Source of the DNA: Cyanobacteria bacterium P01_F01_bin.150
GTDB lineage: Bacteria > Cyanobacteriota > Cyanobacteriia > CAKZMO01
NCBI GenBank assembly: GCA_039189765.1
Contig: JBCCYL010000012.1
Coordinates: 42,798-106,797 of the forward strand
Direction of reading: 5' to 3'
Length of the DNA stretch: 64,000 nt
Positions 20,864-55,154 of the stretch are shown here, piece by piece. Made by a program: the position numbers and the translations under genes. Every line of letters begins with the position of its first letter. Positions within the stretch are counted from its first letter, which is position 1. Under the pieces are notes generated by a model, which was not told the origin of the DNA, did no database searches, and saw nothing but the letters and a program-made list of their open reading frames with translations.

Positions 20864-22672
20864 ATGTCTCTTCAAGCTATCGCCAACCGTCCGCAATCTC
20901 GTCAAGTTTTACGCTATCAAGCTGATAATGCAGATGCGTTACAGGAGGTGCGGGATTTCTTGGAGGGAGGATTGGTCTACAATCCTCTTCATTTGAGTAG
21001 TGATGAAGTATGCCAGATCCCTACATTGTCTGAAGAGGGACTAAAAAGCTTACTTGAAAGAAAAGCCACGTCATCCCGTTGGATTGGTTGGAAACTGTGG
21101 CGTCAGTCTAATGGGTGGGGCGAGTCAGAGTATCGATCCTTTGAGCAGTTGCTGGGGGACTGGAAAACTCGCTCTAACATCCTGCGTTGGATGCGGCAAA
21201 ACGAAGATCTGTGCTTTGAATGCGGATTGGCCGAGCGTAACTATGATTGCGGTGATCTCACCACTCATTTCTATCCTGATTCTCTAACAGGGATCGGGGT
21301 TGACGGGCCTCGCAGTGCTGAGGAGTTCTGTCAACTATACGTCACAGTCATGAATAAGCAACGGGTGTGGCATTCTTCGAAGCAAATCCCGTTCAGCCCC
21401 GTAGTTAATGTCGCTTGCTTCCCTAATTACAATCGGTTGCCATTGTGGGTTAAGCAGGGTCTTGTAAAGTATGCTCCCAACCATGCTCAAATTGGCGGCG
21501 ATCGCATCGGCAACATCTGGGAACTCCCCACAATGGTAAAAGCCTGGAAGTGGGGCAACTTCCCTAAGCTCATTGCTAAGAAAATCGGCAAGCTATCCGT
21601 CAAGTCTCGCTTAATAGCGGGTTTAGCGTGGGGCGCGGTCGATAGCGACTGGGAGAAAAAAGAAAAGGCTCGTGCTGAGATTGTTAATGATTTCTGGTTA
21701 TGGTTCCGAAAGTTATCTAATAGTTCAGTCATCGAATTGTTGGGTTATATCAATAGTCGTAACGACGACAACTATTGCGACTGCAATTTTCTTGCTACTT
21801 CTAAGCATGTCCGCATTTGTTTAGAAATTTTGCTGGATTTACCATATGAGGCATTGGCAGAAGAGTGGGAGCAGGGCGATCGCGACGAAAACGATTTCAA
21901 TCGGCCCAGTGACGAGCGTATCCTGGAAATAATCGCCTCGTCTGGCGATCCTAAGCAGACGTGTGAAATGCTTCTAGGATGCTCCGGCAAGGCTACAGTT
22001 TCAGCGTTTTTGAACTGCGCTCACTGGGATAAAGTAAAGTGGGCTGCGGCTCTAGCATACGGGAGTCCTGACTCTTGCCAAAAGATTCTTGCGCAATCTC
22101 CGCAGATTGCGTACCAAAGAGATGCCGTTGAGTTTCTCTTAACGCTACCGATGAGTGCCCGAATCCGACTTCTGGGCTGCACCACGTTCAAGTACCGAGA
22201 GCGGGAGTGCGAAATCACAGACGACCATGTTCGTGACACTGGCTATCTTTGGAGCAACATCCAGGACAAGCCGGAATTAGGTCGTGTTCGCAATTGGTTC
22301 TCTATTCACGAACAACTTAGCTCTGCGTTCGTTGAAGAACTACCTGATGAAGCTTTGCCCATCCCCCATGGATGGGAGCATTTAGATGGCCTATCTGCTG
22401 TGGATGGTTCTTGGAGTCTTGAATTCCCACGCAGAGTAGCGACTTTGAAACACTGGGGCAAAGCGCAAAAGAATTGCGTTGGTGGTTATGGTCCCGCCAT
22501 CAAGCAGGGGCGATCGGTTGTGTTTGCAGTTCGTGAGCAAGGGTTACTCACTCATACAGTTGAGTACTGTGGCAAGAGCTGTAATCAGTTCTATGGCTAT
22601 GGAAATGGTTACGCAGACACCCAAATTGAGCTATCTGTTAAGCACGCCATTCACCAAGCGATCGGGGCATAA
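20864..22672 (+). CDS. PcfJ-like domain protein
   Basis: C-terminal IHEQL...LKHWGKAQKNCVGGY...GRSVVFAVR...TVEY...QFYGYGN. Confidence 0.8.
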   Translation: MSLQAIANRPQSRQVLRYQADNADALQEVRDFLEGGLVYNPLHLSSDEVCQIPTLSEEGLKSLLERKATSSRWIGWKLWRQSNGWGESEYRSFEQLLGDWKTRSNILRWMRQNEDLCFECGLAERNYDCGDLTTHFYPDSLTGIGVDGPRSAEEFCQLYVTVMNKQRVWHSSKQIPFSPVVNVACFPNYNRLPLWVKQGLVKYAPNHAQIGGDRIGNIWELPTMVKAWKWGNFPKLIAKKIGKLSVKSRLIAGLAWGAVDSDWEKKEKARAEIVNDFWLWFRKLSNSSVIELLGYINSRNDDNYCDCNFLATSKHVRICLEILLDLPYEALAEEWEQGDRDENDFNRPSDERILEIIASSGDPKQTCEMLLGCSGKATVSAFLNCAHWDKVKWAAALAYGSPDSCQKILAQSPQIAYQRDAVEFLLTLPMSARIRLLGCTTFKYRERECEITDDHVRDTGYLWSNIQDKPELGRVRNWFSIHEQLSSAFVEELPDEALPIPHGWEHLDGLSAVDGSWSLEFPRRVATLKHWGKAQKNCVGGYGPAIKQGRSVVFAVREQGLLTHTVEYCGKSCNQFYGYGNGYADTQIELSVKHAIHQAIGA

Positions 22673-22738
22673 GTCGAAACGCCTCTACATGGGGCGTCTG
22701 TGGGATAGTCGTTCACCCACACTGATGAGATAGACGAT
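22673..22738 (+). ncRNA. Type II hammerhead ribozyme
   Basis: GUC-GAAA, stem III ACGCCUC/GGGGCGU, cleavage triplet GUC ending at 22698, stem I UGUGGG/CCCACA, core CUGAUGA at 22722-22728, stem II GAU/GUC. Confidence 0.9.
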
Positions 22739-22991
22739 GGATGTATTTTTAGAAATAGTAGCAGCTACCTTTTTTGCATGTTTGCTTACATCTTTAACAA
22801 CTTTAGCGTTAAAGGAAGTAGAAATATCAGTTGAGACTTTTGCTGCCAATGGACTGATAATAACTCTTGTTTTTTTGGGCTTAGAATTTTTTGAGATGAA
22901 TTCGCTAAGCTTCTGGCTGCAATCTTCGCTAGGGGGCTTTGCTGGCTTATTCGTTGCTTATTTAGTCAGGGGGAAAAAGAATGAATCATGA
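22737..22991 (+). CDS. Small three-TM membrane protein
   Basis: Three hydrophobic segments and a basic C-terminus. Confidence 0.65.
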   Translation: MDVFLEIVAATFFACLLTSLTTLALKEVEISVETFAANGLIITLVFLGLEFFEMNSLSFWLQSSLGGFAGLFVAYLVRGKKNES

Positions 22992-49380: not shown

Positions 49381-49619
49381 TCAGTTTCCTTGACTATAGT
49401 TATAGCCCCATTATCTGCCTCTATTATTTGTTGCTTGAATAACCTCACAAAGTCATCAAATTCATTTGTGGGCAGGTTATTCGGAGCCGATGAGACGAAA
49501 TGCTTTTCAGGATGAGATTCCATCATGACCTTGAGGGATGTTTTCTCCTCATCAGATAGATAGACGCTAATAGCCTGATCAGACGATGAAAATATTTGAT
49601 TGCCTATTTTGACTATCAT
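49377..49619 (-). CDS. Hypothetical protein
   Basis: ATGA-coupled on both sides. Confidence 0.55.
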   Translation of the reverse strand: MIVKIGNQIFSSSDQAISVYLSDEEKTSLKVMMESHPEKHFVSSAPNNLPTNEFDDFVRLFKQQIIEADNGAITIVKETE

Positions 49620-52102
49620 TTTTCTAAAGCCTCACTCAATACAGCTAATACATTCTGTTCCCCTATGTTAGCCATCGCTTCCCATTCATCATCGGACAAG
49701 CCACCCCCATCAATCTCTAACGGCTCAGCATCTTTGCGGGTGGAACGTTTATGACTTTTGGGCAGAAGATCATTATCCTGGATATATTTCTTGTTCTTGG
49801 GCTTGCCAGTGGCTAACAGCCGGAGAAATGCTTTTACTCTGCCAATCGCCCATGAGTGCTTAGTAAAATCACCGCCCCTATAAGCATCTTCGCCACGCCC
49901 GTACACTTGACGTAATACTGTGACTGACGCCCGTTGCCCTGGCTTGGGGTTTTCCTCATTGTGCTTGGTGGCCATATTCTGCAATTGATCGCCCAAAGCA
50001 TCATCACACCTGCACTCCGCAATATCAGCCATAGCCACTATCTCAACACGTCCGAACGCCCATTGAGGCATGTGGTGTAAATAGAGGTTCTTGGCTTCTA
50101 TTGACGAGCTAACGCCAAAAATATATTTGTACTCATCAAAGTCACCGTCATCCCGTGATAACTGGGCAATGCGATAGATCGGATAATTGGGAGATTCACC
50201 ACCTTGGATGTCTTGCAGAAAATCAGCAGACACATAACAGTCAAGTGCTTCACCGTCTGCACCAATGTGCTTTCTGATGTGGCCATATGCTGCTTTCATC
50301 TTGCGGTTAAAGCGCTTGTCACCTGGCAGGTATTCAAGCCCTAACTCTAGTCCGCGCCATTTAATAATCCTGCGCACATAAGAGTAGTCTTCGCGCTTGT
50401 GCGCCTTCCAAATACGATTGACCCACGCTTTGCCAGGGTCGCCTCCCCATAGCAGCCAGGCTATCTTGCCGTTAGATGGCTTATTCCAATCCTTTCCCTT
50501 TTTGTTGCCTTCATGCCGTGCAAAGAACGACACCATCCGAGCAATAGTTTGGATGGGGATAGATTTACCATTGGAGAGATCACGCGCCCGAGCAATTCCC
50601 ACCTCTGTCCCGCCCCTGCCATGCTCGGACCGTAGATCTAAGCCCCGTTGCGCTGCCCGTTGTACTGCCTGAGGTGGAGTGAACCCATCAGTATCTGATC
50701 GTTCATCATCTTCGATGTCTTCGGGTGAGTCATTCTCATCTAAGTCTATGACTGCTTCCAGTGGCTGCTCAGTGGCGATCGCTCTGCGAAACTCTTCAGC
50801 AGTTATCACCCCTGGGATAGTGGAATAAATTTGATAAGTCTCTGCTGTCGTTTTCTTTCCTTCTCTGCGCTCCTGCTCAGTCTCCTCATATATCGATGGA
50901 TAGCGAACCTCAAACGACACTGGGATGCGCCCCAATTCGAGGGAAGAGAGGATTTTGATTATCCGTTCATCATTGGATAAATGCTTCGTCTTCTGTGCGG
51001 TGGTGTTCATCTCCGCATAGGCTCGGGCTTCCGGTGCGCCACTATCAGCCAGCCCAGCCTTGCCGATAGTGCCCCATAATTTGTAGTAGGGCAGACTAGA
51101 AGCGGCAGTAAGCTCTTCCCTAAATATCTCAAAATTCTCACGCACCCCTGAAAGGTTGCGCCCTTCAAATCCCGTGCCAGACGCCTCTGGATCAGTAATG
51201 AGAATGTTGAAAAGAGATTTTTGCAAGCCAATCTCTTTAACAAGTGCTTTAACCTCAGGTAGCTTCCCCGCTGATATTAATTGAGCCAGATTGTTGATCG
51301 ATACCGTAAGCAATGAGAAGGACTTAAGCGCCTCTTGCACAGACCCTTTAACTTCACCATGAGAAGCAAATACAGTCCACATCGATTGAATGATAGAGTC
51401 TGCTAAAGCGTCACCCACCTGCTGATCATAAGGGTGAATCTTATTGCCAAAGTATGGCAGGACTCGGGATTCATGAATAAGTTGCCCTGAGTTGGCCTCT
51501 AGTTGATTCTGACGATCATAGATTAACTGATAAAATTCAGGGTCAGAGCGGTTAAAATCTTGGTGGGATGGCCTGATAGAGTAGCAATCCAACACTGCTA
51601 TCCCGTCCAAAGAATTAATTTCAGTCAACGGCTCTTGTGGATCTTCATCTCCATTAACCCGCAACACAATATAAGCTGCACCAAATTGGCGCGCCCATCG
51701 CTCTGCATCCTCTTTGGCCTGGTCAAAGCCATATGACGATTTACGACTGAATGGCGACACATCCTGCAAAGGCGATCGCCACCGAGCCATCACTTTGTCA
51801 GCGTCATCCTCGTCGCCATCCTTAATTACCAGCTCAATCGACTTCTTTGTCATATCGAGTGCTGGGAGGTCACATACCCTGCGCAACAACCAGCTAGAGC
51901 GATACAACCATCTTAATTCTTGCTCATGCAAAAGAAACGGAGCACCAGCACGAACATTTGTAGAGCTATCCCTGGATGTGCCAAAACCTGTATGGGAGTT
52001 ATACAAAAGGCTTGTCTCTATTGTGTTGGAAAGGAATCCGTCATTCCGCACAACCAACAATCCACTATCTAGAGTCTCTATGCGCTGATTATTGCTGGTC
52101 AT
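49616..52102 (-). CDS. Portal protein (DUF1073 type) with three C-terminal accessory domains
   Basis: LYRSSWLLRRVCDLPALDMT, WARQFGAAYI, IHESRV, LPYYKLWG; follows the large terminase. Confidence 0.9.
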   Translation of the reverse strand: MTSNNQRIETLDSGLLVVRNDGFLSNTIETSLLYNSHTGFGTSRDSSTNVRAGAPFLLHEQELRWLYRSSWLLRRVCDLPALDMTKKSIELVIKDGDEDDADKVMARWRSPLQDVSPFSRKSSYGFDQAKEDAERWARQFGAAYIVLRVNGDEDPQEPLTEINSLDGIAVLDCYSIRPSHQDFNRSDPEFYQLIYDRQNQLEANSGQLIHESRVLPYFGNKIHPYDQQVGDALADSIIQSMWTVFASHGEVKGSVQEALKSFSLLTVSINNLAQLISAGKLPEVKALVKEIGLQKSLFNILITDPEASGTGFEGRNLSGVRENFEIFREELTAASSLPYYKLWGTIGKAGLADSGAPEARAYAEMNTTAQKTKHLSNDERIIKILSSLELGRIPVSFEVRYPSIYEETEQERREGKKTTAETYQIYSTIPGVITAEEFRRAIATEQPLEAVIDLDENDSPEDIEDDERSDTDGFTPPQAVQRAAQRGLDLRSEHGRGGTEVGIARARDLSNGKSIPIQTIARMVSFFARHEGNKKGKDWNKPSNGKIAWLLWGGDPGKAWVNRIWKAHKREDYSYVRRIIKWRGLELGLEYLPGDKRFNRKMKAAYGHIRKHIGADGEALDCYVSADFLQDIQGGESPNYPIYRIAQLSRDDGDFDEYKYIFGVSSSIEAKNLYLHHMPQWAFGRVEIVAMADIAECRCDDALGDQLQNMATKHNEENPKPGQRASVTVLRQVYGRGEDAYRGGDFTKHSWAIGRVKAFLRLLATGKPKNKKYIQDNDLLPKSHKRSTRKDAEPLEIDGGGLSDDEWEAMANIGEQNVLAVLSEALEK

Positions 52103-53608: not shown

Positions 53609-54128
53609 CAGCTTCTATTGGCACTAGCTTATATCCATACTTTTCAGCAGTAGCCCCTGCAATATTAAGGTCACTTAGTAAGCCCATATGCTTCATGAGA
53701 AGTTCTAAAGCTTTGGTTTTATTGTGCATCTTTACGTCAGTGTCAAAGACTTCTCTATCTTCTGAGATAATCTGACGAATTTTTATTGAATCGACGCCCG
53801 CTTTCTCTGCTTCGTCCCACTGGTCAGAGTCTTTAATTTCAACGACAGAATTTTTTACTGTTGCAATATTCGATTTTCGAGCAAACGCAATATAGGCGAC
53901 TTCCTGAATCACTCTGTCGGCTGTAATTTCAGTGCGCTCTTGCTGTGCTGCTCTTAGTTCTTGAATATATTCTTCGATGTCAGCATTTGTCAGCATCCGA
54001 TTGGCATTTGTCGTAGCGGTAGAACCTTTGCCTTTATACCCAGCACGAAAATATGCCTGGGTAGCATTTAAGTCGATTAGATACTCTTCACAAAACCTTT
54101 TCTGCTTTGGCGTCAAGTTTTTCGCCAT
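53595..54128 (-). CDS. terS: Terminase small subunit
   Basis: LTPKQKRFCEEYLIDLNATQAYFRAGY...KTKALELLMKHMG. Confidence 0.95.
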   Translation of the reverse strand: MAKNLTPKQKRFCEEYLIDLNATQAYFRAGYKGKGSTATTNANRMLTNADIEEYIQELRAAQQERTEITADRVIQEVAYIAFARKSNIATVKNSVVEIKDSDQWDEAEKAGVDSIKIRQIISEDREVFDTDVKMHNKTKALELLMKHMGLLSDLNIAGATAEKYGYKLVPIEADDNE

Positions 54129-54146
54129 TTTTACCTGAAAGATTCC

Positions 54147-54900
54147 CTAGTCATAAACCTCAGCATAACCATTCACCACTAGCCACTCATTGCAGTTCAC
54201 ATCATCCTCATTCCACACCGTAGCCAGCCACCGCCCGTACTTGCCCTTCCCGTGAGTCTCAATACCAATGGGACGATCGCCTATCAGCTTCCAACTGAAA
54301 AACCGACTTCTTTAGTCATCTCTCCAATGGTTCTCTAGGCCCGGGAGAAGAGTAAAGAAATCGGTTTGAAGTTGGGTTCAAATTACCAGTGAGGTAGCAC
54401 TCAATGAATTTTTGCCCAGATAACGGAACCCCCGAAGGAGTTTCGCGTGATACTTAATTACAATCTATCCCACCAGATCGAAGAAAGCAATATTTTCGTT
54501 ACATTCGCTCAAACGTCCACCCCTAGGACGTTTAGCGCGACGGCTCTCCTTAAAAAACTACTGAAAGACGCCCCAGGACAGGGTTTAGAAGAGCTTTTCA
54601 ATAGCGATCAGAGCGCTAATCCATACTCACTTCGCCTTACAAGTGACATTGTAGCACAAACACTACAAAACTCTCTACCTTACTGGAGACTTTTCCGCCC
54701 TTCCACGCCTCAATGAGCTTATTCCGTGAATCAATCCCCTTCAGGCGCTCCGGCCCTCTCAATTCAGGAGTGTTGATACCAATAAGTCGAAGCTTTATAG
54801 ATTTCTGCCACGTGTGAAAACCCAGGTCAACATCAACGGTAATAGTGTCACCGTCGTAGATCTTGGTAGCGATCGCTCTATATCGGTAAGCGGGAGTCAT
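54147..54900 (-). pseudogene. Thermonuclease (SNase) gene split by a 421-bp insertion
   Basis: The 5' part (54900-54709) has YDGDT and RLIGINTPE. The 3' part (54287-54147) has GKYGRWLA and NEWLVVNGYA. Joined in frame they give 110 aa reading ...RNKLIE|LIGDRPI... Confidence 0.88.
54288..54710. mobile_element. Non-autonomous structured insertion bounded by a CT dinucleotide at both ends
   Basis: Removing it restores the nuclease ORF. It contains several hairpins and no transposase. Confidence 0.75.
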
Positions 54901-55154
54901 TGCGATTGCCTCTCAGAAATGCCGTTACCAAAAACTTTTGAAGTTTTGAAAAGCAATTCACCACAGACTAAGGCAAAGAATACTCCCGCAAAGAATGCAA
55001 ACCAGTGGTCCGGAGGTGTGGCTATCAAAGGAATAACGTTTGCACAAATCAACATAAATGCACCAAATGTTTTAATTGCCAGCCAAACTCTTTCGGTAGC
55101 ATTATCCGAGCAATCATCCAGAAAACTAAGATAGCTGTCAACAAGTTTACTCAT
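54897..55154 (-). CDS. Small two-TM membrane protein
   Basis: Two hydrophobic segments; ATGA-coupled to the nuclease gene. Confidence 0.55.
   Translation of the reverse strand: MSKLVDSYLSFLDDCSDNATERVWLAIKTFGAFMLICANVIPLIATPPDHWFAFFAGVFFALVCGELLFKTSKVFGNGISERQSQ

Follow-up and report, generated by a model that had tools for sequence, protein, structure and literature searches.

A segment of 421 nt (54288..54708) interrupts a small nuclease gene of a phage in the 64,000-nt stretch of DNA analysed here (the window, G000:C12:42798-106797), and it is a real and clean insertion, which looks like either a mobile insertion or an unusual intron and fits no known family. The reading adopted here, tentatively and at somewhat less than an even chance, is that of a mobile DNA insertion which has neither a transposase nor terminal inverted repeats (TIRs) and which carries a structured-RNA unit of its own. 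A mobile element or an intron is favoured over random capture because the insertion is exact: it lies between codons 64 and 65 of the nuclease, and no target codon was lost or gained.

The interrupted gene belongs to a minus-strand series consisting of an 85-codon ORF, the small nuclease gene, terS, terL and the portal gene, in this order. Its first part (exon 1, 54709..54900, minus strand) comprises 64 codons, from the ATG at 54900 to the GAG at 54711-54709, within an ORF spanning 54637..54900; when left unspliced, this frame runs on for 23 further codons inside the insert up to a TAA stop at 54639-54637. The second part (exon 2, 54147..54287, minus strand) contributes 46 codons and the stop TAG at 54149-54147 and matches PF00565 (E 8.6e-6), with terS starting 18 nt downstream. 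Besides itself, exon 1 has 95 homologues of 66-138 aa, and PF00565 was found in 91 of these 95; judging from these sequence matches, the interrupted gene is a real SNase-family nuclease gene. On an HMM built from the 90 homologues of 100-135 aa (five of the 95 were left out for their length), the frame of exon 1 covers positions 2-60 and beyond and that of exon 2 positions 60-110, and the near-invariant residues of the family are all kept in both halves. The insertion site itself is weakly conserved (lower-case HMM columns 58-63).

In line with the claim of the initial annotation that removal of the insert restores the nuclease frame, deletion of 54288-54708 (421 nt) yields KLIE/LIGD (the slash marks the joint) without a gap, both against the HMM of 90 homologues and against an alignment of 12 chosen homologues. 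A second junction three bases over, obtained by deleting 54291-54711, is likewise gapless against the HMM and gives KLI/KLIGD, so that the boundaries are movable by 2 nt (CT/AG) or, to 54291-54711, by 3 nt; the exon joins implied by these two junctions are CAUUGAG/CUGAUAGG and CUCAUU/AAGCUGAU, respectively. Excision at the TGGAAG direct repeat, which would give LIEAWKLIGD, is disfavoured by three extra residues relative to the HMM and also by the similarity to a second contig (see below), which extends 4 nt beyond the repeat. The placement of both junctions for exact frame restoration speaks as well against an assembly artefact in the form of a chimeric join. Such an artefact might be suspected in a metagenome-derived genome that was compared with contigs rather than raw reads, but an independent contig set, possibly derived from the same reads, holds the whole 1201-nt stretch in one piece of 37,205 nt with 0 differences, and this explanation is considered extremely improbable. 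Among 160 nuclease loci there was no interrupted copy, nearly all of them giving a full or near-full uninterrupted match and two covering part of the query. The phage has no close relatives from which an empty site might be read, terS identity being at most 49% over most of the protein, and no nuclease gene lies near terS in loci L198-L357.

The first 141 nt of contig C12 are repeated as its last 141 nt, and because of this terminal overlap the contig is a closed circle of ~106.66 kb. Rather than a decaying prophage, it represents the complete genome of a phage (or phage-plasmid), with the tailed-phage genes for the small and large terminase, portal, DUF2213, cement protein and major capsid protein, and it further codes for a tape-measure protein, lysozyme and peptidases as well as for ThyX, DnaB, RecT and SSB. 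On C12 the cyanobacterial HIP1 octamer is present in 2 to 12 copies per full 10-kb block, as compared to 10.7 per 10 kb assembly-wide, and on account of this host-like density the replicon is taken to be adapted to its cyanobacterial host. An intein with a LAGLIDADG domain is present in the class II RNR of 1580 aa (L440:2710-7452, minus strand, equivalent to G000:C12:2710-7452), and a solo TnpB-type gene (OrfB_IS605 plus a Cas12f1-like TNB domain) with no adjoining TnpA is located at L441:13840-15525 on the minus strand (G000:C12:33840-35525). A large serine recombinase with Resolvase and Zn_ribbon_recom domains (L440:189-1793, plus strand, equivalent to G000:C12:189-1793) is presumably the phage integrase, and the likeness of its surroundings to the insert junctions is not above that of shuffled sequences.

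Some further features of this phage may be recorded here in their own right. The DnaB protein encoded at L440:12037-14184 has 715 aa, about 250 aa above the usual size of DnaB. The portal protein (window 49616-52102, minus strand) bears a C-terminal inorganic-pyrophosphatase-like domain (PF18823, residues 571-691). A Type II hammerhead ribozyme (RF02276, 44.8 bits at a gathering threshold of 37) at window 22672-22739 on the plus strand begins on the final base of a 602-aa PcfJ-like ORF (20864-22672) and is the sole Rfam match across the whole 106.7-kb phage.

With respect to the insert itself, all sequence features listed in the initial annotation were recovered at their positions. The dinucleotide CT occurs at both junctions (54288-54289 and 54709-54710) and CTTCCA at 54288 and 54700, the reverse complement of CTACCTTACTGG (54675-86) agrees with CCAGTGAGGTAG (54386-97) at 11 of 12 positions, AAACGTCC is found at 54511 and GGACGTTT at 54526, and on the minus strand AACTCCTTCGGGGGTT occupies 54442-54427 and TGCTACAAT 54656-54648. 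Neither the 12-nt inverted repeat nor the repeated CTTCCA nor the CT dinucleotide goes beyond what chance would give. There are no TIRs above shuffles, the best end-to-end alignment being equalled in 402 of 1000 of them, and the two junction regions are no more alike than shuffled sequences.

The predicted structure, in turn, exceeds that of shuffled sequences, the whole-insert fold reaching z -2.65 on the minus and z -3.83 on the plus strand. Its most prominent part is a long terminal hairpin at 54291..54375, in which CCAACU and AGUUGG form a base of 6 bp and a 3x3 internal loop separates this base from a stem of 15 bp with an irregular tip. It has base-pair probabilities of 0.90-0.98 and was matched by none of 200 shuffles (minus strand, z -4.9; plus strand, z -5.5), and on the minus strand it is followed by UUUUU. 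On the minus strand there are, in addition, a hairpin with a AAACGUCC/GGACGUUU stem at 54505..54540 (z -4.05; 1/200 shuffles as good; pair probability 0.99), a cUUCGg-capped hairpin at 54423..54446 (-10.1 kcal/mol; z -1.8; 6/200), and a rod-like irregular stem of ~35 pairs in the MFE fold at 54573..54686 (z -2.67; for the domain 54570-54690, z about -2.7 and 2/200), which competes with the 12-nt inverted repeat 54386-97/54675-86. A promoter-like site on the minus strand at 54648..54677 (TAGAGA-18-TACAAT with TG before the -10; 9/12 matches) points into the insert in the sense of the nuclease; as four such sites were found in the region against 2.6 expected, it is weak when taken alone.

An internal copy of the putative core plus right flank, CTCAATGA, is located at 54400..54407, the other copy being at 54709-54716. 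Since this 8-mer is nearly palindromic, 'copy' and 'complement' are almost equivalent, and the internal copy is able to pair with the flank copy too. An 8-mer abutting a junction (either junction, either strand) recurred inside 562 of 20000 shuffles (2.8%), which is nominally unusual but was noticed after the fact, and in a looser test any 8-mer in common with the 22-nt flanks was present in 513 of 2000 shuffles. The internal 8-mer could alternatively be the trace of two adjacent insertions, namely a 110-bp hairpin element (54290-54399, CT-flanked) and a 301-bp element (54408-54708) which would have generated it as an 8-bp target-site duplication, with the frame still restored. Yet neither part has TIRs or other copies, the second element would have had to insert precisely at the border of the first, and the 12-nt inverted repeat spanning both parts would be left as a coincidence, which makes this scenario highly improbable.

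The insert is judged to be non-coding and devoid of a credible ORF, and no transposase or recombinase ORF lies within it. An 89-codon ORF on the plus strand (54447..54716), with a GTG start and a good Shine-Dalgarno sequence (AAGGAG, 6 nt upstream), was rejected as a gene, as neither the 5.8 billion clustered proteins nor the 1.84 billion representatives searched contain a homologue. An exhaustive search with its 89-aa product returned only two matches, to long proteins of 2505 and 1549 aa, one of them in eight stretches, and both are read as spurious. Atlas language-model recognition of the product was 1516, below 2300, and AF2 predicted a poor fold (pLDDT 53).

In the 10.6-Mb assembly the insert is single-copy and has no partner with similar ends. 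Relatives were found in 0/16 other genomes of the family (which, as sampled, equals the whole order), in 0/400 other genomes of the class, where both matches fell in the flanking genes, in 0/400 genomes of the phylum, and in none of the phage and plasmid collections. Scans with motifs taken from the window produced 9, 22, 4 and 13 loci in viral contigs and 58 loci in metagenome contigs, all of them chance matches or unrelated coding sequence, and the longest extension of any such match was 27 nt. Further copies, or longer versions bearing a recombinase, for which the initial annotation had suggested a search, were not found in the genome or in phage, plasmid, viral and metagenome sequences.

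A part of the insert does recur, in a second contig (20,943 nt; depth 82 vs 34 for the phage) of run X1, the contigs of which may represent the source sample. This contig matches the window solely at 54652..54709, over 58 nt with 8 differences and no gaps, and is unlike it on both sides of the match, the ends of which coincide with the right junction of the insert and with the inside of the -10 of the minus-strand promoter-like site. The hairpin end of the insert has no match in the second contig, only one end being shared, and no joint across the insert was present among the run contigs compared. As an observation in its own right, the second contig contains, just before the 58-nt match, another, diverged version of the motif with which the match begins (GC.AAACACTA.). 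The 30-nt loose end of this contig has no exact match in genome_contigs or metagenome_contigs and is absent at up to three mismatches from the assembly that carries the insert. That a 58-nt right end recurs and stops at the junction is a hint, at the level of sequence, of a wider family behind the insert. Sharing of one end would be expected where a miniature element has just an end in common with a longer or different relative.

The same 58 nt bear on another explanation, in which a moron-like unit consisting of a promoter, a small structured RNA and a stem-loop, and not mobile by itself, was captured by illegitimate or short-homology recombination. In this unlikely scenario the shared 58 nt would be a promoter module like those of PeSLs; they comprise what lies upstream of the -10 and come to an end inside the -10 itself. 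Morons and PeSLs resemble the insert in having a promoter-like site and a stem-loop, here the hairpin with U5, on one strand and in representing a short conserved module in otherwise unrelated contexts, and the microhomology at the junctions is only 2 nt. Shuffling of this kind through PeSL promoter-terminator cassettes is reported for T4-like phages (PMC4122927). However, morons and PeSLs are intergenic and recur within a genome, whereas the insert lies within a coding sequence and its module is unrepeated in the phage, two module motifs (17 and 21 nt) each occurring just once in the 64-kb window even when three mismatches are allowed. Moreover, illegitimate insertion is rarely exact, yet the target is exactly intact, and the promoter call is weak.

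Amongst the known kinds of transposase-less elements, MITEs and PATEs, miniature derivatives of DDE or IS200/IS605 elements, come to mind as being, like the insert, small, non-coding and hairpin-bearing; that the insert has only an end in common with another sequence is a further likeness. In contrast to them, the insert has neither TIRs nor a convincing target duplication and is unrepeated in host or phage. A classical MITE is therefore rejected on the lack of TIRs above shuffles and on the one copy in 10.6 Mb, an IS200/IS605-type PATE on the presence of a strong hairpin at one end only, and descent from the TnpB element of the phage itself on a likeness to the TnpB flanks that is not above shuffles. 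The initial annotation had named ends of a conventional MITE or IS605 derivative as evidence that would speak against its proposal; with no TIRs and no TnpB-flank likeness, such ends were not seen.

The attC sites of integrons have the consensus RYYYAAC...GTTRRRY. The 85-nt hairpin of the insert is similar to them in its base (ACCCAAC/GTTGG), its small unpaired spacer and its long stem, but no extrahelical bases are evident and the attC-like hairpin is intact, not split. An integron cassette is rejected since a G/TT crossover (54295/54294) would leave an empty site that is one base out of frame.

The mechanism that the initial annotation had brought forward for the insert was RNA-guided recombination as in IS110/IS1111 elements. 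Bridge or seek RNAs are described as having two target guides, which pair with opposite strands and whose overlap lies at the core, together with a pair of donor guides (PMC11208160; PMC11187229). With such elements the insert shares the absence of TIRs, a long structured non-coding sequence, an internal stretch identical to the target plus core, and the CT at both junctions, which agrees with the short core that IS110/IS1111 requires but as a dinucleotide can be due to chance. A miniature element of this type, with the ends of a bridge or seek RNA, without a recombinase and moved in trans at a CT core, would also be in line with the inward promoter on a structured RNA and with the occurrence of the junction-abutting 8-mer in few shuffles. 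In the minus sense the internal copy reads UCAUUG-AG and so has the sense, and the inclusion of the core, that the left target guide should have (PMC11208160); the RE-LE of IS621, of 298 bp according to the same source, is comparable in size to the insert. That a module of RNA alone can move in trans has a precedent in ssr9 of ISPpu9, which codes for an sRNA only and is reported to be mobilised by an IS110 transposase (PMC12288879).

Nonetheless, such a miniature IS110/IS1111-type element is considered very unlikely. Of the four guides only one is represented: neither the other target half nor the two element ends have a match of at least 6 nt in the required sense or position, so that the right target guide and the donor guides are missing, the sole candidate for the latter being ACTGAAA, which lies 6 nt in from the end, recurs at 54560 and is not core-adjacent. 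The internal 8-mer lies in predicted stems, outside internal loops, in a local fold no better than shuffles, and an internal-loop architecture is not evident. The insert furthermore is single-copy, without a DEDD recombinase, and no partner with matching ends exists in the genome. The one IS110-family transposase (PF01548, DEDD) of the assembly (G000:C227:11547-11967) lies on another contig, close to the end of that contig, is divided between two reading frames and has no DNA in common with the insert. Thus, what holds of the original proposal of a transposase-less, structured, RNA-guided element is that the insert is discrete, transposase-less, structured and non-coding and has left its target intact; RNA guidance by an IS110-type bridge mechanism found no support beyond one 8-nt match, and the reservation made at the outset that a second guide could not be placed with confidence was justified, no suitable match of at least 6 nt being present.

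If the event had taken place at the RNA level instead, the insert would be an ORF-less atypical or undescribed intron which splices itself from the nuclease mRNA and leaves the nuclease functional, a minority possibility that nevertheless deserves serious attention. ORF-less group I introns occur in phage protein genes such as td, nrdB and sunY of T4, in Twort and in psbA of cyanophages, and introns are usually single copy. The insert is like these group I introns in its length of ~400 nt, its sense orientation inside a gene, here of a complete circular phage genome, the exact restoration of the frame, its single copy and the presence of an intein in the same phage. Both exons are intact with all near-invariant residues, and the cUUCGg hairpin is found on the sense strand together with helices that include G.U pairs. 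The group I rule, by which U is the last base of the 5' exon (AUU/) and G that of the removed part (..UUGG/), is moreover obeyed at one gapless junction of the two; this possible U...G boundary holds only for the alternative junction AUU/GAG...UUGG/AAG and not for that at 54288-54708.

Against an intron stands above all the silence of the covariance models. An Rfam scan of 54100-54950, which had been suggested as a check for a known RNA, assigned the insert to no family, RF00028, RF00029 and all other models giving no match at gathering thresholds or at E<=10, and a genome-wide search with RF00028 led to five places, none of them at the insert. As a positive control, the same search detected a canonical group I intron at G000:C23:65531-65806 on the minus strand (61.3 bits), which resembles the cyanobacterial tRNA-Leu intron, and RF00028 was over its cut-off in two of 14 control genomes. 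Unlike in group I introns, the insertion site is poorly conserved; a P3-P8 core was not recognisable in a crude helix enumeration, which yielded no convincing P3-P7-P8 pseudoknot, and as read from the sequence no guide near the 5' end pairs with the exon (P1). Group II introns have the consensus ends 5' GUGYG and 3' AY; the insert starts with GCGUGG and ends with UUGGAAG, and domain V is missing. G.U pairs of the sense strand are not enriched (16/137 pairs vs 0.18 in shuffles) and gave no guide to the choice of strand, and the long hairpin with its U5 would lie immediately before exon 2.

The shared 58-nt end, the lack of a ribozyme signal and the weakly conserved site are the reasons for leaning towards an event at the DNA level, that is, towards the mobile insertion. 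Supporting this preference, the second contig shares 54652-54709 only, up to the junction, the structure is above shuffles, there is no ORF and a promoter-like site is found on the minus strand, the site is unlike typical homing sites, and the phage already hosts an intein and a TnpB gene. On the other side, there is no second copy, there are no TIRs and only a 2-nt repeat, just one end is shared, and the complete circular phage with its intact nuclease residues would suit an intron equally.

From these observations we infer mobility, membership of a family, a trans-acting enzyme, transcription and an effect on the nuclease. A non-coding segment of ~419 bp may have been inserted by a clean cut-and-join at or beside CT into the SNase-type nuclease gene, in an operon that goes on with terS, terL and the portal gene. 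The insert would be a miniature member of its family, the conserved end of which might be recognised by an enzyme supplied in trans, possibly a conservative recombinase or a transposase of a TIR-less type, not coded in the insert. The inward promoter TGcTACAAT in the conserved end could give rise to a structured RNA of ~345 nt in the sense of the nuclease, predicted to begin near 54641 and to end near 54296 on the minus strand, at the long hairpin and U5. As the insertion truncates the nuclease after residue 64, the enzyme would be inactivated at the DNA level, and its loss may be tolerated because the gene is an accessory one and because an AU-rich hairpin would be a poor terminator.

It is also conceivable, if rather far-fetched, that the insert represents a so far undescribed kind of small mobile phage element with RNA at its centre. 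Such an element might be either a self-splicing intron without group I or group II cores or a transposase-less element with a structured RNA that uses the internal UCAUUGAG, a copy of target plus core, to choose its site, with the 58-nt end recognised by an enzyme. If the 8-mer were functional, this would amount to RNA-assisted target choice without an encoded recombinase. A merely captured fragment would turn the nuclease gene into an ordinary pseudogene, and splicing of the insert would make it a bacterial or phage intron outside both known ribozyme models, a rare find. If, in line with the reading preferred here, the insert is mobile DNA, a TIR-less miniature element residing in a complete phage genome, with no partner in the host, would point to a traffic of such elements between phages.
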